Shown here one piece after another: positions 7,425-28,613 of a DNA stretch of 64,000 bases. Every line of letters starts with the position of its first letter. The first letter of the stretch is position 1. The position numbers were made by a program, and so were the translations under genes. Under the pieces are notes generated by a model, which did not search any database, was not told where the DNA came from, and worked only from the letters and a program-made list of their open reading frames with translations. Source of the DNA: Planctomycetota bacterium (GTDB lineage: Bacteria > Planctomycetota > MHYJ01 > WSZJ01); NCBI GenBank assembly GCA_038060895.1, contig JBBTCT010000005.1, forward strand, positions 63,551-127,550. The letters are read 5' to 3'.

Positions 7425-7435
7425 CGAAGTCCGGC

Positions 7436-10549: not shown

Positions 10550-11374
10550 ATGCGAATCCTCTTCGCCTCCGACTTCCACGGCACGATCCCCTACTTCGAT
10601 GCGTTCGCGAAGCTCGCGCGGCGCCTGAAGCCGGACGCGCTGCTTCTCGGCGGGGACCTCTTCGACAATTCCTCGCCGGTCGAAATCGCGCCGGTCGCGC
10701 AGCGGCAGACGGCGGAAGGGTGGTTCAAGGAGTGGTGCGACGGGGCGCCGGCGCCGGTGTACTGGATCGCCGGGAACCACGAGTGGAGGACGGTGACGGA
10801 TCCGCCGGCGCGGGCGGGAACGTACGTCGGGGAGCGGATGGTCGCGCTCGGCGACTGGGACCTGGTCGGCTTCTCCTTCTGTTCGCCGACGCCGTACTGG
10901 CTGATCGATCACGAGCGGCCGGAGGAAGCGCCGAACCGCCACGAGCCGAGATTCCGGTGCTATGCCTCGACCGGCGACAAGGCGGAACTGGTGGAGAAAC
11001 CGGAAGAGTGGCTCGCGAAGCGCCCGACGCTGGCGTCGATGCTGCGCGAGCTGCCGAGACCCCGGTCGTGGCGCAAGACGATCTTCATGGCGCACAATCC
11101 ACCGTTCGACTCCGGCCTGGACCTCCGTTACGGAAACCTGCCGGTCGGCAGCTCGGACATCCGCAATTTCATTCTCGCGACAAAGCCGGCCATCTCGCTT
11201 CATGGTCACATTCACGAAGCGCCGATTCTCACCGGCAAGCCGATGCACAAGGTCGGACGCACCTGGGGGTTCAATGCCGGCCGCGACCGCGACCACCAGG
11301 GGCTGCGCGCGCTCTGGATCGATCCTGACAAGCCTGAGGAACACGTGCTGCACGGCGGGAAGCCTATTGCTTAA
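10550..11374 (+). CDS. Calcineurin-like metallophosphoesterase (Icc-related)
   Basis: Motifs SDFHG, GGDLFD, GNHE, AHNPP, HGHIHE. Confidence 0.9.
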   Translation: MRILFASDFHGTIPYFDAFAKLARRLKPDALLLGGDLFDNSSPVEIAPVAQRQTAEGWFKEWCDGAPAPVYWIAGNHEWRTVTDPPARAGTYVGERMVALGDWDLVGFSFCSPTPYWLIDHERPEEAPNRHEPRFRCYASTGDKAELVEKPEEWLAKRPTLASMLRELPRPRSWRKTIFMAHNPPFDSGLDLRYGNLPVGSSDIRNFILATKPAISLHGHIHEAPILTGKPMHKVGRTWGFNAGRDRDHQGLRALWIDPDKPEEHVLHGGKPIA

Positions 11375-15110: not shown

Positions 15111-16511
15111 CTACCCACTACTCCCTGCGTCCTTCCCGATGTCCCCCAGCTTGTACTCCTTGATCTTCCTGTAAAGCGTGCGCTCGCCAATCCCCAGAAT
15201 CCTCGAAGCTTCCTCCCGGTTTCCCTTGGTCATTTCAAGCGTCGAGCGGATCAGCTCCGTCTCGGCGCGCTCGAGGCTCATCCCGGCGAACACGGCGGAC
15301 GTGCCGGGCGCCGCCGTTTCGCGCCGCTGGGCAATCTCCTCCGGGATGTCCTTGACGTCCAGCACGGGCTCCCGCGCCAGCACCACCATGGCTTCGAGCG
15401 TGTTCCGCAGTTCCCGCACGTTCCCCGGCCAGCGGTACGCGAGAAGCGCGGCTCGCGCGGCCGGCGAGATCCCGTCGATGCGGCGGTTGTGCTGCTGGGA
15501 GAAATCGCGGATGAAGTGATCGATGAGGAGCGCGATGTCGGACTGGCGGGCGCGGAGAGGCGGGAGATTGATCATGACGACGCGCAGGCGGTAGTAGAGG
15601 TCCTCGCGGAACTTCCCTTCGCGCACCATCTCTTCCAGGTGCCTGTTCGTGCTCGCGATCAGGCGGACGTCCACGGGAATGGGCAGATTCGAACCGACCC
15701 GGTAAACGCACCGTTCCTCAAGGACGCGCAGGAGTTTCGCCTGCGTGGAAAGCGGCATGTCGCCGATCTCGTCGAGCAGGAGCGTCCCGTGGTTGGCGAA
15801 TTCGAAGCGCCCCTTGCGCGCCCCGATGGCGCCGGTGAACGAGCCCTTCTCGTGCCCGAACAGCTCGGACTCGATCAGCCCTTCAGGCATCGCCGTGCAG
15901 TTGATGGGGATGAAATGGTGGTTGCGCCGCGGCGAATTCCGGTGGATCGCCTTCGCGACCAGTTCCTTTCCGGTTCCGCTTTCGCCGGTAATGAGGACGG
16001 TCGCCGAGGTCGGTGCAACCTGTTGAAGCGTGTTGAAGACCTTCTGCATTGCCTCGGAGTTTCCGATGATCCCGCCGAACCCGAACTTGCGGTCGAGTTC
16101 CTGGTGGAGAAACAGGTTTGAGCGCGAGAGATCCTGCTTCTCGACGACCTTCTCGATGACCGCGCGCAACTCGGCGATGTTGAGCGGCTTCTTCATGTAG
16201 GTCGAAGCGCCCTTTTTCATCGCCTCGACGGCGCTCTCGACGGAAGCGAAGCCGGTCATGACGACGACCTCGATGTCCGGGTGAAGGCGCCGGGCGGTCG
16301 TGAGGATTTCCATCCCGTCGATGTCGCGCATGACCAGGTCGGTCAGCACGACATCCACGTGCTCGGACTCCAGAAGTTCGAGCGCGGCCTTCCCGCCGCC
16401 GGCGACGAGCGTGCGGTAGCCGGTCCGGCGGAGGGATTCCGCCATGGTTTCGGCGTGTTCGGGGTCGTCATCGACCACGAGGATCGTGACGTCGGTGGAA
16501 GTGGGGGTCAT
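15111..16511 (-). CDS. Sigma-54-dependent response regulator (NtrC/AtoC family)
   Basis: Receiver domain, GESGTGKE, ESELFGHEKGSFTGA, FREDLYYRL, WPGNVREL, Fis-type HTH. Confidence 0.95.
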   Translation of the reverse strand: MTPTSTDVTILVVDDDPEHAETMAESLRRTGYRTLVAGGGKAALELLESEHVDVVLTDLVMRDIDGMEILTTARRLHPDIEVVVMTGFASVESAVEAMKKGASTYMKKPLNIAELRAVIEKVVEKQDLSRSNLFLHQELDRKFGFGGIIGNSEAMQKVFNTLQQVAPTSATVLITGESGTGKELVAKAIHRNSPRRNHHFIPINCTAMPEGLIESELFGHEKGSFTGAIGARKGRFEFANHGTLLLDEIGDMPLSTQAKLLRVLEERCVYRVGSNLPIPVDVRLIASTNRHLEEMVREGKFREDLYYRLRVVMINLPPLRARQSDIALLIDHFIRDFSQQHNRRIDGISPAARAALLAYRWPGNVRELRNTLEAMVVLAREPVLDVKDIPEEIAQRRETAAPGTSAVFAGMSLERAETELIRSTLEMTKGNREEASRILGIGERTLYRKIKEYKLGDIGKDAGSSG

Positions 16512-16544
16512 AGGCGGGGGGTTGGAAGGAGGGAAAGATTTAAC

Positions 16545-16652
16545 CCCAACCCCAACTCCAACTCCAAATTCCAACCTTCGATGAAAGGACCCGGTCCGTC
16601 AATGGCCACCCACTCAAGGAGTCGACCTCCCGATCGCCGAAATTGGGGTTGG
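16545..16652. repeat. Short hexamer repeats (CCCCAA/CTCCAA) with an inverted copy
   Basis: accccaaccccaactccaactccaaattccaac ... aattggggttggg in the kinase-regulator spacer. Confidence 0.5.
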
Positions 16653-16668
16653 GATCCGGAATTGTCTT

Positions 16669-17397
16669 TCAAAGCGGTATGGCCCCTCCCGCCCTGGGCG
16701 CCAACTCGCCTTCAACCGGAAGCCGTATCGTAAAGCAACTCCCCTTCCCCTCCTCGCTCGTCACTGTCAGCGTCCCGTCATGCTCGTGCACGATCCTCCT
16801 CGCCGTCGGCAACCCGAGCCCCGTCCCCGTCTTCTTCGTCGAGTAGTACACGTCGAAACACCTCGCCGCCGCCTCCGCCGACATCCCCGTCCCCGTATCG
16901 ATCACGTCCAGCTGGGCGAAATCACGCCACCTGGCCGTCTTCAGGATCAGTTCCCCCCCGTTCGGCATCGCCTGGATCGCGTTCATGACGAGGTTGAGCA
17001 GGGCCTGCTTGAAGAGGTTTGCATCGACAGAAACCTTCGGAAGTTCGCCGAGCGACCTCAGGACGCGGACTTTCTTCTGCGTCGCCTCCGGCGTGACGAA
17101 ATCCAGCACTTCCCCGATCACCCGGTTCAGGTCGGTCGGGCGGTTGTCCAGTTTGTGGCCGGCGGCGAACCGGAGGAAGTCGTTGAGGATTTCCTCGAGA
17201 CGGGCTGTTTCCTTGAGAAGGAGAGTGAGGCGCTGAAGCGCACGCCGCTCGCGTTCGTCGCGGGGCTCCTCGAAATCCTCCTGCAGCAGCTGCAGATTGG
17301 CCTGCAGAGTCGAGAGGGGGGTCCGGATCTCGTGCGCCAGCCCGGCGGCCAGCTGGCCGAGAAACGCGAGACGATCGCCTTCCTTGTTCTGAGACAC
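16669..17397 (-). CDS. Histidine kinase core (HisKA + HATPase) without a sensor domain
   Basis: AHEIRTPL about 20 aa from the start; N-box NLVMNAIQA; DTGTGM; GTGLGL. Confidence 0.88.
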   Translation of the reverse strand: MSQNKEGDRLAFLGQLAAGLAHEIRTPLSTLQANLQLLQEDFEEPRDERERRALQRLTLLLKETARLEEILNDFLRFAAGHKLDNRPTDLNRVIGEVLDFVTPEATQKKVRVLRSLGELPKVSVDANLFKQALLNLVMNAIQAMPNGGELILKTARWRDFAQLDVIDTGTGMSAEAAARCFDVYYSTKKTGTGLGLPTARRIVHEHDGTLTVTSEEGKGSCFTIRLPVEGELAPRAGGAIPL

Positions 17398-17547
17398 CGG
17401 GACATTCTGTTAAAGGTCGGCCCGCGCGTCTACCGCATGAACCTGCCGGCCGGCGCCCGCCGGTCGCATTCAGGTCAGATTGAACATCGCCGATCAGGGG
17501 CATATACTCCGATGCCGACATCGATTCCCGACCAAACCTCGAGGCCC

Positions 17548-19389
17548 ATGGCCGCCGACATCCAGGACTGGCTTTCCAATCGCGACATGTTCGCGCGCCG
17601 CGTCTCCTCGCACGAGGTGCTCGGCCTGCTGAAGCGGTCCTTCACGGTCCCCGCGCACACCATCGCGGCGGTCGTGGAGAACGGCTCGCGGCGCGTGGCC
17701 AAGGGCGGTGAACAACTCAGCGGCCGCTTCGACGCCGTCCTCATCAAAACCCAGGAAATGCCGGTCGCCTTCCAGATGGCCGGGCTGCGCTCCAAGGACG
17801 GGTTCGGCATGAACGCCGGGGTCCGCCTCACGCTTCAGCTCGAATCCTACGAGCCCGATCGCGTCGAGGACTTCTGCCGGAACTTCACCGCGGCCAACGC
17901 GACCACGTCGTCGGAGGACCTGCGGTCGTACCTGGCGGTGGACGTGAAGCGCGCGCTGTCCGAGTACATTTCTTCGCACGAGGCGGCCGACCTCCAGAAT
18001 TCCCAGGCGTCGTCCGACGTCGAAGGGGGGCTGCGAAGAGCGCTGGAAGGCCCGCTCTTCGGCAAGGGTCTCAACTTCCGGAAGCTCATGGAGCTCGAAT
18101 TCCACAGCGACTCCTTTGAGAAGTCGCGCGACGAAGCGCGGAAGCAGAACGAGAAGATCCGTGAGCACGAGGGAGTTCTTCTCGACCAGCAGCGGCGCGA
18201 GGAGAAGCTGAAGAATCTCGCGGCGCTGATGAAGAGCGCGGACGCGCAGGAGGTCTTCAAGGAGATCCGCGACGAGCGCGTCAAGTCGCTGCTGTACGCG
18301 AAGCTCATGGAGAACGACCTGAAGGACCTCTCGAGCGAGGACCTGCGCGCGAAGCTGAACCAGTGGGGAGACGACCTGATCGGCGTCGTGCTCAAGGCTT
18401 ACGCGGCGCTGGCGGAGGCGCCGGATGCGCCGGTGGAGCCCGGGAAGACCGGGAAGCTGGCGCGCGTCGTGGTCACGGCGGGATCGCGGGTGTTGCTGTT
18501 CAATCCCGTCGATTTCACCGGCTCGTGCCGGCTGATCGACGCGGGATTCAACCTGCGCAGCGCGAGAATTCATCCCTGGAAAGGGCGCGGTCTGATTTTC
18601 GCGGGTGGAAAGCGGCAGATTTCGGCGATCGACCCGGAGACCACGCAGTCCGTCGCCGCGTACCCGCTTCCCCAGGAGAAAAAACCCAAGGGCGGCGTGA
18701 ATGCTTCGGCGGTCTGGAAGCACCGGATGTTCGCGACGCACAGCGAGCTGGGGCTGATCGAGTGGGACCTGAACAGGCCGGGCGTTCCGGGAGTGACGAT
18801 CAACGCCGACCTGACGGCACTTTCCGCGACGGTGCGGGCCGCGGTGACGACCGCGGACGGATGGCTGTATTTCGCGAGCGGACGGACGGTGTACGGGATG
18901 GACCTGGAAAAGGGAACGCCTCCGGTCGCGTTCGGGCCGCAGACGCCGAGCGGCGTGACGGCGCTGGCGGTCGGCGAGCGGCTGATCGTGGCGGGGTGCG
19001 GAAGCGGGAACGAGGGCGCGTTGTCGATATGGGACCGGCGCGATCCGTCGCGCGCCGTCGGCGTGATCCGCAGGAATGCGCCGATCGGGAGCGTGCGCCT
19101 GACGTCGATCGGAGGCGTGCCGCACATGCTGTTCACGTGCCGCGACCACGGCGTCACGGCGCGCGTGATCGGGCAGACTCTTGAGACCCACTACGATGCG
19201 GGCGAGCACTCCGTGATCCTCGCCGAGGGCGGCTCCGATCATGTCGTCGCCATCGACCACAACGGGCGCTTCCTCATCGCCTGGGACGCCGCGCGCCCTG
19301 CGAAGCCGCGGAAGATCCTGGACCTGAACGCGTACACGGACCAGGCGGTGTACGACCTGGCGCCTGTTTTCGGGGAGGGCGGCGCGTGA
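17548..19389 (+). CDS. SPFH/Band-7-like N-terminal domain + coiled coil + WD40-like beta-propeller
   Basis: 'FTVPAHTIAAVVENG' and 'LRSKDGFGMNAGVRL' resemble SPFH strands; charged coiled coil; C-terminal blade-like motifs (LIEWD, LSIWD, LIAWD). Alternative start at 17512. Confidence 0.6.
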   Translation: MAADIQDWLSNRDMFARRVSSHEVLGLLKRSFTVPAHTIAAVVENGSRRVAKGGEQLSGRFDAVLIKTQEMPVAFQMAGLRSKDGFGMNAGVRLTLQLESYEPDRVEDFCRNFTAANATTSSEDLRSYLAVDVKRALSEYISSHEAADLQNSQASSDVEGGLRRALEGPLFGKGLNFRKLMELEFHSDSFEKSRDEARKQNEKIREHEGVLLDQQRREEKLKNLAALMKSADAQEVFKEIRDERVKSLLYAKLMENDLKDLSSEDLRAKLNQWGDDLIGVVLKAYAALAEAPDAPVEPGKTGKLARVVVTAGSRVLLFNPVDFTGSCRLIDAGFNLRSARIHPWKGRGLIFAGGKRQISAIDPETTQSVAAYPLPQEKKPKGGVNASAVWKHRMFATHSELGLIEWDLNRPGVPGVTINADLTALSATVRAAVTTADGWLYFASGRTVYGMDLEKGTPPVAFGPQTPSGVTALAVGERLIVAGCGSGNEGALSIWDRRDPSRAVGVIRRNAPIGSVRLTSIGGVPHMLFTCRDHGVTARVIGQTLETHYDAGEHSVILAEGGSDHVVAIDHNGRFLIAWDAARPAKPRKILDLNAYTDQAVYDLAPVFGEGGA

Positions 19390-20411
19390 GCGACGGCGCG
19401 GGGACGTGCGCGGCCTGCGGGCGGACGTATCTGTCGCGAGTCGGGATTTTTCGCGATGACGCGGCGTGCGCGACGTGCGGCAAGCCGATCTGCGCGGCGT
19501 GCTGGAGCGACAAGACCACGTTCTGCCAGGAGCACGAGGACGTACCGGTGGCGACGCTGGCCGACGCGCCGAAACCCGGGGACATCCCCACGGGGCAGGT
19601 GCCGGCAGGGTCGATCAGCCGCCAGTCGGCTCGCGAAATGGAAGAGGGATTCCTTTCGCGGGTGAGGAAGAACTTCCGCCAGCTCGCGGGGATTTACAAC
19701 CCGCTGGATGGCCGCTGGTACGACGTCATCGAGCGAAATACGGGCGAGTACGTCGTCGACCTGGGGGCCGAGGCCGCGAAAAACGCGGTTCGCGATCGCG
19801 CGAAATCGGGCTTCAACGAAATCCTCGCTTCGATGCCCACCAACCGCGCCGCCGTCTGCGACGTCTTCGCGCGGGACTTTCTCGGCGCGAAAGTGAAGAA
19901 GATCTGCCTCGCCGGGGTGTCGCTCTCCCCGCTCGACGAACTCGTAAAGCCGGGCTGGTCGAGCCAGCCGCTCGGGTACGCGGCGGTTGCCCAGGCCCAG
20001 CGGCGCATCGTCACGGATCCGGGCGTCTTCTATTACCTCTGCTATTTCGCGACGACGGGCTGGTCCGGAGAAGCGCGCGACATCCTCGCGAACGGGCCGA
20101 ATTTCGTCTCGTGCCTCGTCGAAAAGCAGGCGGATTCGTGGCGCATCACCGCGAAGGACGACGGCCGATGGGGCGATGCGCTGGCGGTGTACGACCTGGA
20201 GACGTACTCGGAGAAGCGCGACCGGGTGCAAATTTTCGTGAAGCGGCACACGTACGAGCTGCTGATGGACCGTTTGAGCGACCGGTATGTGTGCGAGAAG
20301 ACGGGGCTGCCGCTGGACGTCGTGAGGGCGTCATTCCGGGATCTTTCGCAGGATCCGTTTGTGCACCTGACGGCGGATGAGGAGCAGTTCCGGATATCGC
20401 GGGTTTACTGA
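19386..20411 (+). CDS. Zn-finger protein with alpha/beta middle domain and possible C-terminal winged helix
   Basis: CAAC..CATC..CAAC..CQEH; GTGA overlap with the upstream gene; C-terminal helix-helix-helix-hairpin pattern. Confidence 0.65.
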   Translation: MSDGAGTCAACGRTYLSRVGIFRDDAACATCGKPICAACWSDKTTFCQEHEDVPVATLADAPKPGDIPTGQVPAGSISRQSAREMEEGFLSRVRKNFRQLAGIYNPLDGRWYDVIERNTGEYVVDLGAEAAKNAVRDRAKSGFNEILASMPTNRAAVCDVFARDFLGAKVKKICLAGVSLSPLDELVKPGWSSQPLGYAAVAQAQRRIVTDPGVFYYLCYFATTGWSGEARDILANGPNFVSCLVEKQADSWRITAKDDGRWGDALAVYDLETYSEKRDRVQIFVKRHTYELLMDRLSDRYVCEKTGLPLDVVRASFRDLSQDPFVHLTADEEQFRISRVY

Positions 20412-20431
20412 AGACGGAGGCGAGCCAGGAC

Positions 20432-20535
20432 AATTCTGAATATCGAATATCTAATATCGAATTCTGAATGAACGGCACCCTTCAAACGATGTCGTTCATT
20501 CATGATTCAATATTAGATATTCGATATTCAAAATT
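20432..20535. repeat. AT-rich ~104-bp imperfect palindrome built from heptamers
   Basis: aattctgaatatcgaatatctaatatcgaat pairs with attcaatattagatattcgatattcaaaatt (2 mismatches); inner arms tgaatgaacggca/tgtcgttcattca. Confidence 0.85.
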
Positions 20536-20630
20536 ACTCCTTCCCCCTGATTCACGCGAAAGCCCTTTCTACGTAAGCACCATATAGGCGCAGGGGTTAG
20601 AATGCTCCTCGGCCTGCACCCGGAGACCGC

Positions 20631-21332
20631 ATGATCCTCGACAAGATCAAGAAGCTGATGGGCCTCGGCTCGATCCCCGACGAGGTCGCCCCGATCTACA
20701 AGGGCGCCAAGTCGGAACGCGAGGCTCTCGAACTCCTCCGCGACGCCCGCCGCCGCGACGAGGACCGCCGTAACCGCGCCCTCGAGGACGTCGAAATCCT
20801 CCAGGGCAAGGAAGGCGAGCTCATGGAGGAGGGCAAGCGCGAAACCGACCAGAACCGCCGGCTCTCCCTCGCCCGCAAGATCAAGGACGTCCGCTGGAAG
20901 GTCGAGGAGATCGAAACCAAGGTCGAAAACATCTTCAACAAGCGCATCCGCATCTACAAAGAACACGTCGCGTCGCTCGAAACCCTCGTCGCGCTCGCGG
21001 AAGAGCCGCTTCCGTCGTCCAAGCAGCTGGAAGACGCGGCGATCAAGGCGAAAGAGAAGCGCGAGGACCTGGACAAGACCGTCGCGATGGCGGAGGGAAT
21101 GTCGCTCGACAAGAACGCGGAGCCGGTGCTGGACGAAGAAGAGAAGTCGATTCTGGCGGAGTTCGAGAAGCACGATGACTCCAAGCTGGAGCAGGACGAG
21201 CTGGCCGCGCTGACGAAGCAGAGGCCGGAAGACGAGTTCGCGAAGCTGGAGAAGACGGCGCGCAAGAAGGAGCGGCCGTCGAAAGAAGCGCCGAAGAAGC
21301 AGGCTGAGTCAGAAGAGGAGGAGCTCGAATGA
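20631..21332 (+). CDS. ESCRT-III/Snf7-like helical protein 1
   Basis: Amphipathic N-terminus MILDKIKKLMG, long helical hairpin, acidic tail; RBS GGAG; in the cluster with the Vps4-like ATPase. Confidence 0.55.
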   Translation: MILDKIKKLMGLGSIPDEVAPIYKGAKSEREALELLRDARRRDEDRRNRALEDVEILQGKEGELMEEGKRETDQNRRLSLARKIKDVRWKVEEIETKVENIFNKRIRIYKEHVASLETLVALAEEPLPSSKQLEDAAIKAKEKREDLDKTVAMAEGMSLDKNAEPVLDEEEKSILAEFEKHDDSKLEQDELAALTKQRPEDEFAKLEKTARKKERPSKEAPKKQAESEEEELE

Positions 21333-21994
21333 GCGCGGCCAGCGACATGATGGACTGGCTGTTCAAGCGGCGCCGCCGCATCACGGACTTCAAGCCGGAG
21401 GAGTTGCGGCGCGAGGAAAAGCGGCTGGAGATCCGTGAAAACCAGCTCGTGGCGCAGCAGGAAAAACTCGACCGCGAGAAGGAAGACATCTTCCAGCAGG
21501 GCGTGAAGAACAAATCGGTCGTGCGCCGGCGGATGTACGCGCGGCGCTTCAATGATCTGATGAGCCGCCTGCGGCTGATGGACCGCGAGCTGTCGCGGGT
21601 TTCGAAAGAGGTGATGACGCTGTCGCGGATCCGCGCGCTGGTGGAACGCACGAAGAGCCCGAAGTCTGTCACCGGAATCCTGAACAAACTGACGGATTCC
21701 AATCTCGACGAACTGCAGGCGCTGCTGGAAGACGACAAGATCGGCGAAGAGTTCTACCTGCAGAAGCTGGACATGCTTCTGGGCGTGGCCAACGACCCCG
21801 CGTACGACGCGACCGAGATCGGATCCGAGGGGATGGAAGTCCTCAAGACGTGGGAGGCGATGGACGAGGGGGAGATGGAGTTCGACGAAGGCCTGAAACA
21901 GGCTGAAACGGGGATCAAGGAACGCGGAGAGGGACGCAAAGAAAAGCCGCAGCACGAGAAGGAGAAGGACGAGGAGCAGGAGGAGGCCACCTAG
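21329..21994 (+). CDS. ESCRT-III/Snf7-like helical protein 2
   Basis: MMDWLFKR start, basic helical N-half and acidic C-half; ATGA overlap; paralog of the next gene. Confidence 0.6.
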   Translation: MSAASDMMDWLFKRRRRITDFKPEELRREEKRLEIRENQLVAQQEKLDREKEDIFQQGVKNKSVVRRRMYARRFNDLMSRLRLMDRELSRVSKEVMTLSRIRALVERTKSPKSVTGILNKLTDSNLDELQALLEDDKIGEEFYLQKLDMLLGVANDPAYDATEIGSEGMEVLKTWEAMDEGEMEFDEGLKQAETGIKERGEGRKEKPQHEKEKDEEQEEAT

Positions 21995-22603
21995 ATGAGC
22001 CTGATCGACCTTTTCAAGCGGCCGAAGCGGATGGCCGACCTGAAGCTGGAGGAAGTGAGACGGGAAGAAGCCCGCCTTTCGCTGCGCGAGACGCAGGCGA
22101 TTGCGCGGCTCGAGCAGATGGAGCGCGACAAGGAGGAGATTTTCCGCAAGGGGACGAAGATAAAGTCCGGCATCAGGCGGAAACAGCTCGCCCGCCAGTT
22201 CGAGCAGAAGAAGAACGAGATCGCGATTTCAGAGCGCGAGCTGAACCGGCTCGGCAAGGAAGCGGTGACGATCGCGGCGATCCGGACGGCCATCCAGCGC
22301 AAGACGGACATGAAGAAGAGCGTGCTGTCGATCCTGAACCTGGCCGAGGAAGGAGAGCTGCAGCGACTCCTCGAGGACGACAAGATTTCGTACGACCTCT
22401 ACATGGAGCGCCTCGGCGAAATCGCCGACACCGCCAACGATCCTTCGAGGGACATCATCAGCGAGGTCGGCAAGGAAGGGGCCGAGCTCCTCGACATCTG
22501 GCAGAAGATGGACGACGGCGAGATCGAGTCGTTCGACACGGGGTTGAAACTCGCGGAAGAAAAAGCCAGGGAGAAGCCGCTGCCTGAAGAAGAAACAGAG
22601 TGA
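21995..22603 (+). CDS. ESCRT-III/Snf7-like helical protein 3 (tandem paralog of protein 2)
   Basis: Shares LFKR, RREE.RL..RE.Q, LLEDDKI, ANDP, G.EG.E.L..W..MD.GE with 21329..21994; TAG-ATG junction. Confidence 0.6.
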   Translation: MSLIDLFKRPKRMADLKLEEVRREEARLSLRETQAIARLEQMERDKEEIFRKGTKIKSGIRRKQLARQFEQKKNEIAISERELNRLGKEAVTIAAIRTAIQRKTDMKKSVLSILNLAEEGELQRLLEDDKISYDLYMERLGEIADTANDPSRDIISEVGKEGAELLDIWQKMDDGEIESFDTGLKLAEEKAREKPLPEEETE

Positions 22604-22610
22604 TCCTGCG

Positions 22611-23102
22611 ATGAGAGTGGCGACGAGCGGCGACCCGACCGTGGCGATGTGGGCGGCGCAGCGTTACGACCCCGCGTCGGCGCTTCGAACGGCCTGGGGG
22701 AAACTGTTCCGCATCGTGGCGTGGTGCACGGCGGCGCCCTCATTCGGGCTGCTCGCATGGAGCACCATCGCATACGCGCGCCTCGACGGGCCTTCGGGTC
22801 TCCAGACGCTCGGCTACTTCCTGAACGACTACGTCGCCGCGTGCGGCGTCGGGCTCGCCGCGCTTTTCGCGTCGATCGCACTCCCCCGCCTCCGGCGCCG
22901 CGACGTGCCGATGCTCTTCGGCGGGTGCGCGGCCGCCATCCTGCTCCTTTACCTGCCGAGTCTCTTCAACGCCTGGCCCGTGCTGCGCGAGAAGAAAATG
23001 CCCGCCACTGCCGTCGTCCCGCTGGCTTTCCCGTTCGCGCTCCTCTCGATCGCGGCTGCGGCCGCGGTGCTGGCGAAGCGCCCCAGGCCAAGGGCGGCGT
23101 AA
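22611..23102 (+). CDS. Small integral membrane protein (~4 TM)
   Basis: Four hydrophobic stretches; lies 7 nt after the upstream stop and 3 nt before the ATPase start. Confidence 0.65.
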   Translation: MRVATSGDPTVAMWAAQRYDPASALRTAWGKLFRIVAWCTAAPSFGLLAWSTIAYARLDGPSGLQTLGYFLNDYVAACGVGLAALFASIALPRLRRRDVPMLFGGCAAAILLLYLPSLFNAWPVLREKKMPATAVVPLAFPFALLSIAAAAAVLAKRPRPRAA

Positions 23103-23105
23103 ACC

Positions 23106-24329
23106 ATGGACCTCTACACGCCCATCAAGCAGGCGCTGACGAAAGCCAAGGAACTCTACGAGGCGCGCGAGCACGACAAGGCCGCCGCTTCCTACGACAA
23201 GGCCGCTTCCCTCATGTCGATCTACGCCGAGCAGGCGATCGGGCGCGACGCGGAGATGAGGCGGCGCAAGAAGGCGGTGGAGTACCGCGAGATCGCCAAG
23301 AAGCTGCGCAGCGGCGAGATTGAAGCGCCCGGCGCGAAAGACGACCGCGATGACAATGGAAGCGCCGCACCGGCGGCGGCCGCCGCGGAAGGCAAGCAGG
23401 CAAAAGCCGCCGGCGAGGTCAAGGCGGCCGTGCTCTCGCTGATCAAGACCTCTTCGATCGGCTGGGGAGACATCGGCGGACTGGAGCCGACAAAGGAAGA
23501 AATCAAGTTTGCGCTCGGGATCACTCTGGCGAAGCAGCCGGCGAACGTGCAGCTCTCGGCCTGGACGAACATCCTGTTCTACGGACCGCCCGGGACCGGG
23601 AAGACGCTTCTCGCCGCCGCGACGTCGCACGCGATCCGGAACTCGGACGACATCCAGGCGGTGTTTTTCAACGTGAAGGTGTCGTCGATCCTCTCGAAGT
23701 ACTTCGGCGAGTCGTCGAAGATCATCAGCGAGCTCTACGGCACGGCCCGTGACACGTCGCCGGCCGTCATCTTCCTCGACGAATTTGAGTCGGTCGCTGG
23801 GAAGCGCGACGACCAGGACTCGGGGCCGGAGCGGCGGATCATGTCGACGCTGCTTTCCGAGCTGGACGGGATGGAGGCGAAGGGGCGCCGGGACATCTAC
23901 GTGCTGACGATTGCGGCGACGAACCGGCCGTGGGATCTCGACCCCGCGGTGCTGAGCCGGTTTGAGAAGAAGATCCTGATTCCGCTTCCGGACATGGTCG
24001 CGCGGCGTGAAATCCTGAGGATCCACCTCGACAAGCGCGGCTTCCAGGTGAACGCGGACGCCGCGCAACTGGCCACCGCGACGGAGGGGTACAGCGGGCG
24101 CGAGATCGAGCGGCTGTGCAAGGAGGTCACCACGCGGATGGTGGCGGAGATGAACCGGGAGATTCCGGGGCTGATCGACAAGGGGCTGGACACGGTGAGG
24201 ACCTACCAGCTCAAAGTGAGGCCGCTGGGAATGGGGGATTTCCAGAAAGCGATCGCGAAGCTCCATCCGCAGACGACGGCGGCCGACGTGAAGAAGTACA
24301 ACGAGTGGAGAGAGGCGCAAGTGGAGTAA
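23106..24329 (+). CDS. Vps4/CdvC-like AAA+ ATPase with N-terminal MIT-like domain
   Basis: Three-helix N-terminus (QALTKAKELYEAREHDKAAASYDKA...KKAVEYREIAKKL); W.DIGGLE; Walker A GPPGTGKT; pore loop SKYFGES; Walker B IFLDE; SRH AATNRPWDLDPAVLSRFEKKILIPLPD; GYSG.EI; C-terminal helix DVKKYNEW. Confidence 0.85.
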   Translation: MDLYTPIKQALTKAKELYEAREHDKAAASYDKAASLMSIYAEQAIGRDAEMRRRKKAVEYREIAKKLRSGEIEAPGAKDDRDDNGSAAPAAAAAEGKQAKAAGEVKAAVLSLIKTSSIGWGDIGGLEPTKEEIKFALGITLAKQPANVQLSAWTNILFYGPPGTGKTLLAAATSHAIRNSDDIQAVFFNVKVSSILSKYFGESSKIISELYGTARDTSPAVIFLDEFESVAGKRDDQDSGPERRIMSTLLSELDGMEAKGRRDIYVLTIAATNRPWDLDPAVLSRFEKKILIPLPDMVARREILRIHLDKRGFQVNADAAQLATATEGYSGREIERLCKEVTTRMVAEMNREIPGLIDKGLDTVRTYQLKVRPLGMGDFQKAIAKLHPQTTAADVKKYNEWREAQVE

Positions 24330-24340
24330 CAACGCTTTCG

Positions 24341-24420
24341 CCCTTGCCCTTGCCCGTGCCCTTGCCCACATCACGATCGATGACTCGTGCGGTGGGCAAG
24401 GGCATGGGCAAGGGCAAGGG
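24341..24420. repeat. ~80-bp palindrome of (CCCTTG)n/(CAAGGG)n hexamers
   Basis: cccttgcccttgcccgtgcccttgcccac ... gtgggcaagggcatgggcaagggcaaggg, with inner cacga/tcgtg. Confidence 0.85.
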
Positions 24421-24477
24421 AAACGACCTGGACGCACCTGGCCGAGGTAGAATTACTACCCTTCCCCGGAGAAAACC

Positions 24478-25074
24478 ATGGGCATCTTCAAGTCCCGCGA
24501 AGAAAAACGCATCGAACGCGACCTCGAGGTCCGCAAGGGCATCGCTTCCATCAAGCGCAACCTCAAGGACATGGATAAGCACACGAAGGAATACATCGAC
24601 AAGGCCAAGAAGGCCAAGCGCATCGGCGACAACGACCAGCTCAAATTCATCAAGAGCGCTCTCAAGAAAACCGCTCTCGGCAAGAAGATGCGCGAGCGCC
24701 AGCTCCTCTCGCTCGAGACCGCCATGCAGATCAAAAACCAGGCGGAGTCCGACGGCGAATTCGCCCGGGCGATGATGGAAGTCTCCAAGTCGATCTCCGA
24801 GGTCTACGGCTCCACCGACCTGGCCAAGACCCAGAAGAATTTCGAACGCGCCATGATGCAGGCCGAAACGCTGCAGGACCGCATGCAGATCGTCGTCGAG
24901 TCCATGTCCGACACGCTCTCGACCTCCGACGAGGACGCCGAGAAGATCCTCAGCGACAAGGACATAGACAAGATGATCGACGACGAAGCGGTACACGAGG
25001 AGAAGGGCGAGCTGGACAAGGAGATCGAGAAGGGGCTGAAGGAGATCGAAGAGGAGATGGGGAAGGAGTCCTGA
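24478..25074 (+). CDS. ESCRT-III (Snf7/Vps2/Vps24/CdvB-like) protein 4
   Basis: MGIFK start; basic hairpin 'KAKKAKRIGD'; 'ARAMMEVSKSI...DLAKTQKNFE.AM' helix pattern; acidic 'DKDIDKMIDDEA'; MIM1-like tail DKEIEKGLKEI. Confidence 0.75.
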   Translation: MGIFKSREEKRIERDLEVRKGIASIKRNLKDMDKHTKEYIDKAKKAKRIGDNDQLKFIKSALKKTALGKKMRERQLLSLETAMQIKNQAESDGEFARAMMEVSKSISEVYGSTDLAKTQKNFERAMMQAETLQDRMQIVVESMSDTLSTSDEDAEKILSDKDIDKMIDDEAVHEEKGELDKEIEKGLKEIEEEMGKES

Positions 25075-25146
25075 AGTATGTAGGAAGTGGCCTTTTTGGA
25101 CGGGGATGAGGGATTTTCGAAGCTCAGAGCGAGCGCGAGAGTGACT

Positions 25147-26487
25147 ATGCCAGAACCATGGGAAGCAAAATGGCGGCTGATCCGTTCAATCGGAGAGGGT
25201 GGCCAAGGGGTTACCCACCTCGTTTCCGACAGGGCAGAGCCCTGCCGCATGGGCGCACTCAAATTGCTGAAAAACAACAAAAGCAGCGAAGCACGAACGC
25301 GGATGCTTCAAGAAGTGACGAATCTTCAAGTCGTCCACACTCAGAAGGGGCGAGTTCCGGACGTGCTCGATTCCAATGTTCAGTTCCACGCCGAGAACGT
25401 TCCTCTCTACTTTGTCATGGAGTACGTCGACGGCGTAACCCTGACCAAGCGAGTGAGGGAGTGCGGCGCCCTATCTGTTCAGGACTCGTTGAGCCTGTGT
25501 CTCTCGATCTGCAGAACGCTAGAGATCGCGCACCGGTTCAGCATTCAGCACCGCGATTTGAAACCGGACAATGTACTGATTCCGACCTCGCGTCCCGCGG
25601 AACCCATCCTTGTTGACTTCGGGCTCTCCTTCAATGAAGAAGACCACGACTCGGTCACGAGAACCAACGAGACGATTCAGAATCGGTTTCTAGCTCTCCC
25701 AGAACTTCGGGTACCTGGCGCGTCAAAACGCGACACCCGCTCCGATGTGACTGCAGTGTGCGGAATGCTCTACTTTTGCCTGACCGGATTCGAGCCCGTT
25801 GACTTGAGTGACGGGTCTGGCAGAGCCCCTCACCGCAGACCTGTTCCTCACGGCTTCCCGGTCGAATTGCAGAAGTCTCAACTGGCTGCGCTGTTCGACC
25901 GAGGATTTCAGATTGATATTGGAAACAGATTTCAGTCGATCGAAGAACTCATTCAGAGGGTTCTGCACGTTCAGAGTGATGCGCCCGACAAATCGGTCGA
26001 CCTGGTTGAGAAGGCAAGGGTGGCGAGTTCAGAGCTTCGCCGAAGAAGTAGCAAGCGCCGAGCCGCAGTCTTTCAGACTTGCGTTGGAGTCTTTGGGGCA
26101 AAGCTAGCCGACTTTGTCCAACGACTGAACGGCACCATCGCCGACTTCTCAGTAAGCCACGGATCAAAGACACCCGGAATGCCACTGCCAGCTGGAAGTG
26201 TTCAGATTCTCGACGTGAGCCACTCAGTAACGTTGAGCTTGAAGGGTCATCAAAACTCCTGTTCCTTTATCTACAACTGCGCGCTCGAGGAAAACCAGAT
26301 GGTCCTACTTCGAAGTCGGCTTAGATACGGAATTCCTGATCCTTGGAATCCCCCTTCTGAGAATTGGGAACGGGTCGCATATTTCCCCACGCCAGAAGAA
26401 CTTGATTTCGCTCCGATCGAAGCGGATCTCAGATCGACACTTGCGTTTGGGATGGAACTCATGGTCGACAAGCTCGGAGATGCCTAG
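25147..26487 (+). CDS. Ser/Thr protein kinase with lower GC content
   Basis: GEGGQG, ALK, HRDLKPDN, DFG, LPE, DV...CG; many A/T-ending codons relative to flanking genes. Confidence 0.88.
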   Translation: MPEPWEAKWRLIRSIGEGGQGVTHLVSDRAEPCRMGALKLLKNNKSSEARTRMLQEVTNLQVVHTQKGRVPDVLDSNVQFHAENVPLYFVMEYVDGVTLTKRVRECGALSVQDSLSLCLSICRTLEIAHRFSIQHRDLKPDNVLIPTSRPAEPILVDFGLSFNEEDHDSVTRTNETIQNRFLALPELRVPGASKRDTRSDVTAVCGMLYFCLTGFEPVDLSDGSGRAPHRRPVPHGFPVELQKSQLAALFDRGFQIDIGNRFQSIEELIQRVLHVQSDAPDKSVDLVEKARVASSELRRRSSKRRAAVFQTCVGVFGAKLADFVQRLNGTIADFSVSHGSKTPGMPLPAGSVQILDVSHSVTLSLKGHQNSCSFIYNCALEENQMVLLRSRLRYGIPDPWNPPSENWERVAYFPTPEELDFAPIEADLRSTLAFGMELMVDKLGDA

Positions 26488-26627
26488 TAACCAGTTTGCG
26501 ATTAGCGCGGAGATTGAGGATCTTCGCAGGTAGATTCGGCAGCTGGCAGTAGCTTGTCGAAGTCGCCGAGTCAGTTGATGATTCCGGTCTACCGGCGCCA
26601 AAGCCAACACTTGGAGACAACTAAATC

Positions 26628-28613
26628 ATGAATTCCCTAGGCATGATCATGCTGCCCGTCCTCGCTCTGGCCGCAGTCTCCGGATGCTCCGACGGCCCCG
26701 AGCCCTCCACGGTCTCCGCGCTGGGTGTCGGCGGTGCGCAGGAGGACGCGGAAGAGGCGGCGGCTGCGGACTTCGCGGCCGTGAAAGCGGGGGTGGAGAA
26801 GGCGGGACTTTTCGACGAGAAGGACCTCTTCATGTCGATCGACCCGGTGGAACCGCCAAAAGGCCGTGCGGGAGCGTGGCCGCGGGTGGCGCGGTTTGAA
26901 ATCCTGCGCAAGCCTGAGCTAAAGGTGATCGTCGGGACGTTCGACCTCGAGAAGGCAGCGGTGCTTGAATCGCGCGAGGTGAAGGACGTGGAGCCATGGC
27001 TCACGGACAGCGAACTGCTGGAGGACATCCAGCGGATCGTTCTGGCGGACGCCGGTGTGCAGGAAGAGCTGGCGCACCGGGGAATCCCTGTCGTGGATCA
27101 GCAGCGGCGCGTGCGGGTCGACCCTTGGGCGACGGGCGCACGGTCTGCGCCGTCGGGGCACGGGCAGCGGCTGGCGCGGTGTCTGTTCTTCGAGAGGTCG
27201 TCCGAGGGAACGTACTACACGCACCCGATCGAAGGCGTGACGGCGCTGGTGGACCTGGCATCCGAGAAAGTGCTCTCGGTCGAAAAGGACCCGGACCTCT
27301 TCCCTGTCTCGTCGCGTTCGCGGCTGCTCACCAGCGAACTCAAGGGCCTCCAGCGCCTGGAATCCAGCATGCCCGACGGCGTGTCGTTCGTGGCAGACGG
27401 GAACAACGTGGCCTGGTGGAAGTGGAAGCTCCGCTGGTCGTTCAATGCGCGCGAGGGGCTGGTGATCCACGGGGCGACGTTCGACGACGCCGAGGGGAAG
27501 GCGCACGACGTGCTGGCGCGCGGGTCGATTTCGGAAATCGCAGTGCCTTACGCGCCTTCGTCGCCGACATGGGGGTGGAGGTGCGCGATGGATGAGGGGG
27601 AATACGGGCTGGGGCGGTGCAGCACGCCGCTGACGCCGGGGAAGGTGACCCCCGCGTTCGCGAAATCGTTCCACTGCGCCATCGCCGACGAGTTCGGAGA
27701 CGTGTCGCTCAAGGAGCACGCGGTCGCGATCTACGAGCGGTCGCGTGGGCCGCTGTGGATGCATAACGAGGAATGGCCCGCGGACTCGGGATACGCCGTG
27801 ACGCCGTTCGAGGAAGACCGTGAGCTGGTGATCTGCACGCTGGCAACCGTCGGCAACTACGACTACCTCTTCGAGTGGTCGTTCACGCTCTCCGGCGCCG
27901 TGCGCCTGCGCGTTTCGCTTCACGGAATCCTGCTCTCGTCCGGAACCCAGGACAAGACCTGCGCCGAGTGCCGCGCGGTGGTGGACGCGGACGACACGCT
28001 CCTGTCCCGGCACCTCGTCGAGGCCAACACAGGGGCGCCGCTTCACCAGCACCTCATCAGTGTCCGCCTCGACCTCGATGTGGACGGTGAGAAGAACAGC
28101 GTGACGGAAGAGGACGCCGGGGGTGCGGACAAGGGGAAGGCGTACTACACGTGGAAGCGGCGGACGCTGAAAACGGAGAAGGACTCGGTGCGCGAGGCGG
28201 GCGCGTCGCCGGCGTTCGGGTGGAGAGTGGAGAATCCGGGCAAGACGACGTCGCTTGGGCACCATCCGTCGTACCGGGTGCTGCCTCATTCCCACGGCAA
28301 GCCCGTGATCGTGGCGGACGACCCTTTCGTGAAGAAGGCGTGGTTTGCGCGCCATGAACTCGCGGTGACGCGGTACGACGCTTCGCAGCTGTTCGCCTGC
28401 GGCGACTACGTGCTGAGCGAATCGCCGGGCGGGACGCTGGAGACCTGGGTTGCGGACGACCAGCCGGTGGCCGGCGAAGACGTCGTCTGCTGGGTGACGC
28501 TGTCGGCGGTGCACCTGCCGTGTGCGGAGCAGTGGCCGATCATGCCGCCGGTGACCGTGGGCGTGGACCTGATGCCGGACGACTTTCTTTCCGAAAGCCC
28601 CACGGTCCGGTGA
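26628..28613 (+). CDS. Copper/TPQ primary amine oxidase, probable lipoprotein
   Basis: TPQ consensus GNYDY, Cu ligands HQH and HLP, catalytic-base region MDEGEYG, WPIMP; lipobox-like AVSGC. Confidence 0.9.
   Translation: MNSLGMIMLPVLALAAVSGCSDGPEPSTVSALGVGGAQEDAEEAAAADFAAVKAGVEKAGLFDEKDLFMSIDPVEPPKGRAGAWPRVARFEILRKPELKVIVGTFDLEKAAVLESREVKDVEPWLTDSELLEDIQRIVLADAGVQEELAHRGIPVVDQQRRVRVDPWATGARSAPSGHGQRLARCLFFERSSEGTYYTHPIEGVTALVDLASEKVLSVEKDPDLFPVSSRSRLLTSELKGLQRLESSMPDGVSFVADGNNVAWWKWKLRWSFNAREGLVIHGATFDDAEGKAHDVLARGSISEIAVPYAPSSPTWGWRCAMDEGEYGLGRCSTPLTPGKVTPAFAKSFHCAIADEFGDVSLKEHAVAIYERSRGPLWMHNEEWPADSGYAVTPFEEDRELVICTLATVGNYDYLFEWSFTLSGAVRLRVSLHGILLSSGTQDKTCAECRAVVDADDTLLSRHLVEANTGAPLHQHLISVRLDLDVDGEKNSVTEEDAGGADKGKAYYTWKRRTLKTEKDSVREAGASPAFGWRVENPGKTTSLGHHPSYRVLPHSHGKPVIVADDPFVKKAWFARHELAVTRYDASQLFACGDYVLSESPGGTLETWVADDQPVAGEDVVCWVTLSAVHLPCAEQWPIMPPVTVGVDLMPDDFLSESPTVR

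Follow-up and report, generated by a model that had tools for sequence, protein, structure and literature searches.

A candidate bacterial ESCRT-III/Vps4-type module encoded by a conserved gene cluster of Planctomycetota

Archaeal ESCRT-III/Vps4 systems, including (i) the CdvB paralogues with CdvC and (ii) the Asgard ESCRT-IIIA/B proteins with Vps4, cluster one or more Snf7-family genes with an ATPase of MIT-AAA-Vps4_C architecture and carry their ESCRT-III-like paralogues in tandem. Both traits recur in the eight-gene cluster described here, g1 to g8, which occupies positions 17548 to 25074 of a 64,000-nucleotide (nt) stretch of planctomycete DNA, hereafter the window (GenBank assembly GCA_038060895.1, contig JBBTCT010000005.1, positions 63,551 to 127,550). 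The cluster is interpreted as a bacterial ESCRT-III/Vps4-type module whose likeliest role is the maintenance or scission of cytoplasmic or intracytoplasmic membrane, a reading to which we give a probability of roughly 65%. It differs from the archaeal systems in its bacterial host and in that neither ESCRT-I nor ESCRT-II components were identified; the same holds when it is compared with the eukaryotic ESCRT machinery, of which Vta1, ESCRT-I and ESCRT-II were not identified.

The available sections of recent reviews place such a combination outside bacteria. According to those of a 2025 review (PMC7619361), an ATPase of the Vps4 kind 'appears absent in bacteria', and those of a 2024 survey report ESCRT components as identifiable in archaea 'but not in bacteria' (Makarova et al. 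2024, PMC10936438); the corresponding parts of PMC7615534 and PMC8281802 add nothing on bacterial Vps4. The significance of the locus lies in a Snf7-family gene and a MIT-AAA-Vps4_C ATPase gene as fixed neighbours in a bacterium, the pairing that these accounts call missing. The nearest bacterial precedents come from Ravi et al. (2024, mSystems, PMC11237479), whose available text describes VPS4-like AAA+ ATPases transferred to several bacterial lineages, as well as bacterial PspA/Snf7 homologues some of which adjoin a protein with two AAA+ domains, together with transporter genes. As described in that text, snf7 is displaced by a TPR-6TM gene in the VPS4-like cases, whereas here a Snf7-like protein and three hairpin proteins are encoded beside the ATPase; the Snf7-AAA+ case involves two AAA+ domains and transporters, in contrast to one AAA domain and no transporter here. 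No description of a planctomycete Snf7/Vps4 operon was found by full-text search, although the supplementary tables of PMC11237479 may list loci of this kind.

The genes of the cluster, with the predicted character of their products, are as follows.

g1, 17548-19389, + strand: 613 residues; SPFH-like domain, coiled coil and WD40-like propeller.
g2, 19386-20411, + strand: 341 residues; GTG start, 4-nt overlap with g1; Zn-finger and a domain of ~270 residues.
g3, 20631-21332, + strand: 233 residues; helical-hairpin protein, 219 nt after g2.
g4, 21329-21994, + strand: 221 residues; ATG start, 4-nt overlap with g3; helical-hairpin protein.
g5, 21995-22603, + strand: 202 residues; 0-nt gap after g4; helical-hairpin protein.
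g6, 22611-23102, + strand: 163 residues; 7-nt gap after g5; small membrane protein with ~4 transmembrane (TM) segments.
g7, 23106-24329, + strand: 407 residues; 3-nt gap after g6; ATPase with MIT, AAA and Vps4_C regions.
g8, 24478-25074, + strand: 198 residues; 148 nt after g7; Snf7-family protein.

A first-pass annotation of this DNA had described eight co-directional, mostly tightly coupled genes, and the layout bears this out, with all genes on the + strand and joined by 4-nt overlaps or gaps of 0-7 nt, save for the two real intergenic gaps between g2 and g3 (219 nt) and between g7 and g8 (148 nt). The start of g1 at 17548 is the one conserved in its orthologues. The same annotation had named the products as an SPFH-like/propeller protein, a Zn-finger protein, three charged helical proteins, a protein of about four TM segments, a MIT-like AAA ATPase and a Snf7-like protein; these descriptions hold on the evidence given below, and the multi-subunit ESCRT-like composition that it proposed for a bacterium is supported by the presence of a Snf7-family gene beside a MIT-AAA-Vps4_C ATPase.

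The product of g8 is assigned to the Snf7 (ESCRT-III) family through its close relatives. The Pfam model Snf7 (PF03357) matches 14 of the 21 aligned g8-family members, which are 58-99% identical to g8, with a best expectation value (E) of 1.5e-9, and a precomputed PF03357 annotation is attached to 73 of the 120 g8 homologues listed (manual count), one homologue being named 'Snf7 family protein' by NCBI. When the g8-family profile was compared with the PDB, only three matches were returned up to E 10, namely CHMP3, CHMP3 and CHMP2A (E 0.011-0.098); at these modest E-values the alignment to the eukaryotic ESCRT-III proteins runs end to end and is collinear, pairing 13-167 with 14-164 over ~150 residues. 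The family is tight, with a mean column identity of 78%. As in eukaryotic ESCRT-III, g8 combines a basic N-terminal half with an acidic C-terminal half (net charge +11 and -16). The same split recurs in g3, g4 and g5, the four proteins spanning net charges of +3 to +11 on the N-terminal side and of -14 to -19 on the C-terminal side. Its C-terminus carries a motif in which D180, I183, G186, L187, K188, I190 and E193 are each at least 90% conserved, the 'GLK' core being common to g4 and g5 in the first two of the three locus groups defined below. Compared with the MIT-interacting motif 1 (MIM1) consensus, this motif is a loose fit only and no clear MIM1, nor was a MIM2 motif recognised, which sets it apart from eukaryotic ESCRT-III; a complex prediction for the g7 MIT domain and the g8 tail (residues 150-198) gave a score of 0.01 which, with no controls, is evidence neither way.

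The partner ATPase, g7, comprises (i) a MIT domain at residues ~1-75; (ii) an Ala/Pro-rich linker, flexible as is the MIT-AAA linker of VPS4; (iii) an AAA domain at 156-294, followed by a lid; and (iv) a Vps4_C helix at 357-402. The Pfam models AAA and Vps4_C match with 119.7 bits and 28.7 bits, the latter against a cut-off of 21.3, and Vps4_C is detected in 18 of 19 g7 orthologues (E <= 0.1). The motifs of a classical AAA core are all present in the sequence, with Walker A GPPGTGKT at 160, the pore loop KYFG at 198 and Walker B VIFLDE at 221, and the positions of all three are invariant across the 19 orthologues.

The identification of the N-terminal domain as MIT relies on a deep profile of 33 N-domains, including the N-termini of 25 representative g7 homologues from a library of 1.8 billion proteins. 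This profile aligns over the whole domain with the MIT domains of human VPS4A and VPS4B, reaching E 1e-4 with SKD1/VPS4B 1wr0 (6-75 against 9-78), E 1.8e-4 and E 1.9e-4 with the VPS4B entries 4u7y and 2jqh, and E 6.7e-4 and E 6.9e-4 with the VPS4A entries 2jq9 and 1yxr. Further matches at E 0.002-0.12 comprise the chitin synthase MIT domain, yeast Vps4, MITD1, the katanin p60 MIT domain and CdvC, the weakest being CdvC 4lcb at E 0.12. The MIT matches are single stretches covering the whole domain and make up most of the matches of that form; the rows that rank above them are consensus-TPR designs, matched through repeated 22-residue pieces. A shallower version of the profile retrieved the VPS4A MIT domain at E 0.8-1.4 only, and a homologue search with g7 residues 1-100 returned 20 orthologues only, none of them with a precomputed MIT domain.

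In its catalytic part g7 also resembles the microtubule-severing ATPases katanin p60 and spastin, which share the order of MIT domain, AAA domain and C-terminal helix. Among single-domain PDB chains katanin p60 scores highest, at 170.5 bits with g7 residues 114-401 aligned to 22-304 of 309, the two-domain Cdc48/p97 chains topping the list only through the summing of two stretches. For the last 112 residues katanin p60 is again first (43.6 bits), aligned through the katanin C-terminus, and no Vps4 chain occurs among the best 60 of the 69 PDB matches of this segment. The automatic name 'katanin p60 ATPase-containing subunit A1' was given by JGI to 2 of the 20 g7 orthologues. The gene neighbours of g7 are Snf7-like rather than tubulin-like, and bacteria are not known to have a microtubule substrate in the sense of these enzymes. 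In a quick tree with SH-like approximate likelihood ratio (SH-aLRT) support and a midpoint root, built with no named references, the g7 orthologues form one clade (99) within a large unnamed family of ~390-residue MIT-like AAA proteins, and a second set of ATPases, AAA2 together with the group-3 enzymes introduced below, forms a separate clade (100). The best library matches to g7 include giant proteins (P0156-P0162 and others) of 1,000-2,350 residues with three to six AAA stretches.

The genes g3, g4 and g5 are assigned to one homologous family because g4 and g5 share 45% identity (E 2e-51), as paralogues, and the g3 family aligns to g4/g5 as a distant homologue. The latter alignment, made by hhalign after long group-3 homologues had been added to the g3 family, reaches a probability of 89.3% and E 2.2e-6 over 84 columns; an earlier comparison that did not include these homologues gave E 0.0018. 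The AlphaFold2 models of g3 and g5 disclose a similar layout, in which a long hairpin is followed by three to four helices and g3 adds a short N-terminal helix. In the g3 model (mean predicted local distance difference test, pLDDT, 76.8) the helices span 2-10, 29-70, 74-124, 130-157 and 169-196; in the g5 model (pLDDT 72.2) the hairpin comprises 18-55 and 59-105, with further helices at 116-127, 133-147, 150-173 and 180-192. Charged residues make up 43-47% of the three proteins, and net charges are +3 and -14 for the N- and C-terminal halves of g3, and +11 and -19 for those of g4. Hairpin layout and charge split are needed for ESCRT-III membership and are not specific to it.

Comparison of the models with known structures is suggestive. 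Vipp1 chains head the Foldseek list of g3 against the PDB, its best 14 rows holding 8 Vipp1 chains, 2 CdvB chains and 1 CHMP2A-CHMP3 structure (E 0.07-0.37, probability up to 0.99), and for g5 the archaeal CdvB/CdvB2 chains stand at ranks 4, 8, 9, 10, 26 and 47 (E 1-3). VIA-align treated both models as generic helical hairpins, with ESCRT-III chains tied with unrelated ones, and Pfam scans of 25 and 16 members of the g3/g4/g5 family, at E up to 10, did not match Snf7 or PspA. A 503-residue group-3 homologue of g3 (E 1.5e-14 by the g3 hidden Markov model) matches Pfam Snf7 at E 0.0046 in a collinear alignment of 297-446 with 3-152 of 171. The ESCRT-III fold that the first-pass annotation had anticipated for the helical proteins therefore stands for g8 as a matter of family membership and is suggestive only for g3, g4 and g5. 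The 33 g5 homologues found are, where named, all from Planctomycetota. Long g3-like genes, encoding 497-688 residues, occur in the Phycisphaerae-type loci, at L024:652-2163, L025:7171-8796, L026:107-1600, L027:4517-6040 and L028:7279-9345; in these proteins the g3-like region is C-terminal and preceded by an extension of ~300-500 residues to which no Pfam family corresponds.

The remaining products are accessory to this core, and an archaeal counterpart open to comparison is not described for the SPFH-WD40 fusion g1, for g2 or for g6. A Pfam scan of the single g1 sequence gave no matches; by family comparisons g1 comprises an SPFH/Band-7-like domain (~34-187), a charged coiled coil and a WD40-like beta-propeller (~330-600). 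The first 250 residues of 14 g1-family sequences align by hhalign to 18 Band_7 domains from related genomes, each scoring at least 43.8 bits by PF01145, with a probability of 88.9% and E 2.4e-6 over 139 collinear columns. The family profile picks up WD40 chains of designed as well as natural origin (E 8.4e-15 to 1e-4), in several stretches each, at profile positions ~397-577. As a lead only, the ESM Atlas places g1 residues 1-300 with SPFH clusters (0.91 and 0.90), all of the best 10 named hits being of the same family, and returns for whole g1 its own cluster only and a beta-propeller lead at 0.85. A scan for TM or hydrophobic segments found none in g1, which is conserved in all three locus groups. 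In g2, the Zn-finger displays eight Cys/His ligands between residues 8 and 50 (C8, C11, C28, C31, C36, C39, C47 and H50) and matches Pfam FYVE at E 0.0059 with 17.1 bits, under the cut-off of 27.8; it is confined to the window, L004, L006 and L007. The ~270-residue C-terminal domain persists at 30-34% identity in group-2 loci, has no relatives in Pfam and a best E of 0.31 in a PDB profile search, and to the eye has the look of a winged helix at its C-terminus. For g6, a script flagged hydrophobic segments at 73-94, 98-125 (two overlapping) and 130-156, and a fourth stretch at ~31-55 was read by eye. The gene is found only in the six closest loci (L001, L002, L004, L005, L006 and L007), group-2 loci having no g6 between g5 and g7. 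The vicinity of an SPFH-like and coiled-coil protein and a Zn-binding module recalls the archaeal 'Meth_adaptin' loci, as described in the available sections of the survey by Makarova et al. (PMC10936438).

The cluster genes are a unit conserved across deep Planctomycetota lineages. In a synteny sample of 28 loci (L001-L028), divided into groups 1, 2 and 3, a g7 orthologue 61-94% identical to g7 lies immediately upstream of g8 in 22 loci, L003 ending at a contig edge. The whole order g1-g2-g3-g4-g5-(g6)-g7-g8 is preserved in 14 loci of groups 1 and 2, two of them with a truncated g1, and is interrupted by contig ends in the remaining loci of these groups. The divergent group 3 (L024-L028, including a Phycisphaerae MAG, that is, a metagenome-assembled genome) comprises long g3-like, g4/5-like and Snf7-like genes; in L025, L026 and L027 the Snf7-like gene is followed by an ATPase of AAA2 type, and L025 and L026 hold a g1-like gene as well. 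AAA2 is a second ATPase with a MIT-like N-terminus (by eye), an AAA domain and Vps4_C, found downstream of g8 in 15 of 16 group-2 loci, e.g., at L008:11134-12264 (Vps4_C 21.7 bits). Since group-3 loci pair the Snf7-like gene with an ATPase that the tree places with AAA2, the link between ATPase and Snf7-like gene is kept across two ATPase paralogues, and the linkage of ESCRT-III-like genes, a MIT-AAA ATPase and an SPFH-WD40 gene survives both deep divergence and a change of paralogue. The cluster is single-copy, syntenic with a housekeeping-type neighbourhood across genera and not island-like. Of the Planctomycetota genomes sampled, 75 of 401 yielded the Snf7-like family, as did 54 of 288 genera; among the genomes of high quality the count was 30 of 243. 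One taxonomic family accounts for 19 of the positive genomes, several of them assembled into 3-6 contigs.

Several group-2 and group-3 loci carry additions to this arrangement. In L008, AAA2 is followed by a TM and TPR protein that resembles by its description the 'TPR and 6TM' partner in the available text of Ravi et al. In the source genome AAA2 is unlinked, on contig C15 (G000:C15:137779-138954, - strand, equal to L030:3780-4955, - strand; Vps4_C 24.4 bits), where it adjoins a 1284-residue cyclase/STAND/TPR protein. Group-2 extra genes in L008 include a possible lipoprotein-like open reading frame between g3 and g4 (6990-7523) and a single-TM protein between g8 and AAA2 (10657-11130), and a dual-specificity phosphatase-like gene lies just upstream of g1 (L008:3106-3600; Tc-R-P, E 1e-7). 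Insertions of ~3 kb are found at L021:6953-10000, between g7 and g8, with a kinase-like gene on the opposite strand, and at L027:6849-9979, between the g4/5-like and Snf7-like genes.

The surroundings of the cluster, in window coordinates, comprise the following features.

lgt, 16-795, - strand: flanking gene.
ispH, 4714-5562, + strand: flanking gene.
Sigma-54-dependent activator gene, 15111-16574, - strand: activator domain at 15570-16070.
Histidine kinase gene, 16669-17397, - strand: divergent, just upstream of g1, with the sigma-54 activator gene.
Sigma-70-like promoter match, 17480-17508, + strand: TTGAAC, 17 nt, TATACT; 40 nt upstream of g1.
g9, Ser/Thr kinase gene, 25087-26487, + strand: starts 12 nt after g8; PD-T4-6 match.
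Copper amine oxidase gene, 26628-28613, + strand: Cu_amine_oxid 324.9 bits; N-terminal signal-like segment.

The lgt, ispH and sigma-54 regulator genes are present as the first reading of the window had them, and the histidine kinase is syntenic in L001, L004, L006 and L007 (74-93% identity). A sigma-54 activator just upstream is reminiscent of PspF of proteobacteria; the sequence before g1 gave no sigma-54 promoter match even when 2 mismatches were allowed, and across the window such matches number 11 against 16.4 expected. The sigma-70-like sites before g1 are 2 overlapping matches, consensus matches only, compared with 1.1 expected in shuffles.

The sigma-54 activator is one of several points of contact with the bacterial PspA/Vipp1 (IM30) system, which in some loci associates PspA with the SPFH protein YdjI, according to the available sections of PMC10936438, as an SPFH-like g1 accompanies the cluster here. 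The two systems differ in that g8 is assigned to the Snf7 branch and not to the PspA branch, and in that PspA/Vipp1 lack a Vps4-type partner, as stated in the available part of PMC7619361, whereas the cluster encodes a MIT-AAA ATPase. In the source genome, searched in six frames with the operon included, PspA_IM30 gave 0 matches at E 0.01; the same model was positive in 9 of 14 control genomes. Replacement of PspA by the Snf7-like protein was considered as a general explanation and rejected, because separate PspA_IM30 genes accompany the cluster in all 3 of the 3 genomes of the same genus and are present in 33 of 75 Snf7-positive genomes.

If the module works as its parts suggest, g8 would co-polymerise with g3, g4 and g5, forming a mixed ESCRT-III-type polymer on the inner membrane's cytoplasmic side, with membrane contact made through the basic N-halves and short hydrophobic or basic N-termini. 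The soluble SPFH-WD40 protein g1 would mark or organise the membrane site and recruit the polymer, much as SPFH proteins accompany PspA and certain archaeal ESCRT loci. It may be helped by g2 and, in this lineage, also by the 4-TM protein g6. The MIT domain of g7 would dock on the acidic, conserved C-terminal tails, and a g7 hexamer would thread or extract subunits through its pore; such extraction could drive polymer turnover and shape change, leading to membrane constriction, scission or resealing.

A number of observations weigh against this reading of the cluster. Polymerisation, binding of the ATPase to the tails and the cellular role are wholly inferred. As a single sequence, g8 reaches 15.2 bits with Pfam Snf7 (E 0.04, six-frame search), under the cut-off of 27.3, and in the Pfam scan it does not match Snf7 at E 0.1. 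When hhalign is run between the g8 family and g3 or g4/g5, the probability is 0.2%, even with extended alignments, and Foldseek of the g3 and g5 models against the PDB returned nothing at E 0.001. Single g7 N-domains match MIT in Pfam in 3 of 18 cases, with a best E of 0.077, and TPR_2 in 12 of 18. The small domain of g7 aligns to katanin and apparently lacks the beta-domain insertion of Vps4-type enzymes, a difference from eukaryotic ESCRT on account of which g7 may belong with katanin/spastin-like proteins and not with the Vps4 orthologues. The NCBIfam scores of g7 (CDC48 179.8, PAN 176.3, CdvC 167.6) are non-discriminating, and unlike archaeal CdvC, g7 remains far under the 650-bit cut-off of the CdvC equivalog model. 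As these scores are too close, g7 is filed by architecture as a Vps4/katanin-type MIT-AAA ATPase, and not as a proven Vps4 orthologue. Finally, a defence-type kinase, g9, lies directly downstream of g8 in the source genome.

The leading alternative is that coiled-coil proteins partner an AAA+ unfoldase that remodels no membrane, the whole serving as, for instance, a stress, protein-quality-control or defence module, with the ESCRT-III likeness limited to g8. The helical proteins would then be adaptors, substrates or sensors, in keeping with the lack of significant ESCRT-III sequence or structure matches for g3, g4 and g5. The AAA core of g7, and this part only, matches the PADLOC 2.0 models of defence ATPases (IetA 124.2 bits, TRIP13 67.9 bits, mad8 and DolB) and the NCBIfam model IteA, and g9 matches PD-T4-6, a single-gene anti-phage family, with 331.8 bits (E 1.6e-99, residues 23-333). 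However, the PADLOC models find nothing on g1-g6 or g8 and assign the operon to no defence system, and g9 has no counterpart in L001, the locus of the closest relative, where an amine oxidase gene directly follows g8, so that the kinase looks like an independent insertion outside the conserved unit. The Snf7-family assignment of g8, the MIT domain of g7 and the SPFH-like domain of g1, a domain of the membrane-microdomain type, also argue against this alternative, as does the single-copy, housekeeping-type setting of the cluster. The known partners of MIT domains are ESCRT-III tails. We consider the unfoldase explanation unlikely.

A second alternative, which we hold to be quite improbable, is a dedicated division or budding scission machine, a bacterial Cdv analogue that replaces FtsZ and in which the SPFH-WD40 protein would place the ring in the manner of CdvA. 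Planctomycetota are noted for doing without FtsZ, for their budding and for the complexity of their inner membranes. The planctomycete host that the first-pass annotation had raised as a condition is borne out by the relatives, all of them Planctomycetota MAGs, and FtsZ was found neither in the source genome (estimated 86.5% complete) nor in the 75 genomes with a Snf7-like gene, 30 of them of high quality. An FtsZ-like match, in no case above the cut-off, occurs in 24 of the 401 sampled genomes, all 24 of which are devoid of a Snf7-like gene. The presence of several ESCRT-III-like paralogues beside a MIT-AAA ATPase also mirrors the CdvB paralogues with CdvC, as they are presented in the available sections of PMC7615534 and PMC10936438. 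On the other hand, 326 of the 401 genomes have no Snf7-like gene and 302 of these 326 have no FtsZ match either, so that most FtsZ-less planctomycetes divide without the cluster, and the mutual exclusion of FtsZ and Snf7 rests on few related families that are not phylogenetically independent. Because of these counts the cluster is unlikely to be a phylum-wide FtsZ substitute, and the idea that Snf7 replaces FtsZ throughout the phylum was dismissed as a general rule. We hold a role dedicated to division to be less likely than one in membrane maintenance or scission.

An origin of the cluster by chimeric assembly, or from archaeal or eukaryotic sequence contaminating a bacterial MAG, might be suggested by the state of the source genome (a 5.4-Mb MAG in 47 contigs, 1.51% estimated contamination) and by a guanine-cytosine (GC) content lower inside the cluster than around it, but is effectively refuted by recurrence, as the cluster lies within its contig (C5), between lgt, ispH and the sigma-54 two-component pair and the amine oxidase gene, the same order and upstream histidine kinase return in L001, L004, L006 and L007, the arrangement stands on many independently assembled MAG contigs, the 28 genome contigs with a gene for a g8 relative all bear Planctomycetota, Planctomycetia, Planctomycetales, Candidatus Brocadiia or Phycisphaerae titles, and DNA runs of several studies contain the stretch. 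The titles of all named g8 and g5 relatives are likewise those of Planctomycetota-lineage MAGs, and the labels of the DNA runs are groundwater or aquifer metagenomes.

The reading as a bacterial ESCRT-III/Vps4-type module makes testable (i) ATP-driven ESCRT-III remodelling in bacteria, (ii) a link between SPFH proteins and ESCRT-III, and (iii) the origin of the Vps4-ESCRT-III partnership. Its boldest form, in which several FtsZ-less deep Planctomycetota lineages run a genuine ESCRT-III/Vps4 scission machine composed of a Snf7 protein and three divergent paralogues and placed by the SPFH-WD40 protein, appears to us rather unlikely. Were it true, the machine would perform scission in division or budding, vesicle release or the shaping of intracytoplasmic membranes, and ESCRT-III of the Snf7 type paired with a MIT-AAA ATPase would not be an innovation of archaea and eukaryotes; the pairing would either predate the divergence of the domains or stem from an ancient transfer between them, followed by independent elaboration.

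Two RNA libraries from one aquifer sample contain short contigs identical to g1, g3, g4, g5, g6, g7 and g8, some of which span the g5-g6, g6-g7 and g7-g8 junctions. These contigs are consistent with expression and do not prove it, because DNA can occur in such libraries. None lies on g9/g10 (25016-27000), a region that is nevertheless covered by a DNA run from that study; as the data are contigs, this absence proves nothing.

Among the minor observations, an amine oxidase gene adjoins g8 in L001, as one follows g9 in the window. In the window at 20001-26000, GC content is 0.58-0.60 in the cluster and 0.63-0.70 around it, and both GC skew and AT skew are positive; the dip fits proteins with 43-47% charged residues and probably reflects their Lys/Glu-rich composition rather than a foreign origin.

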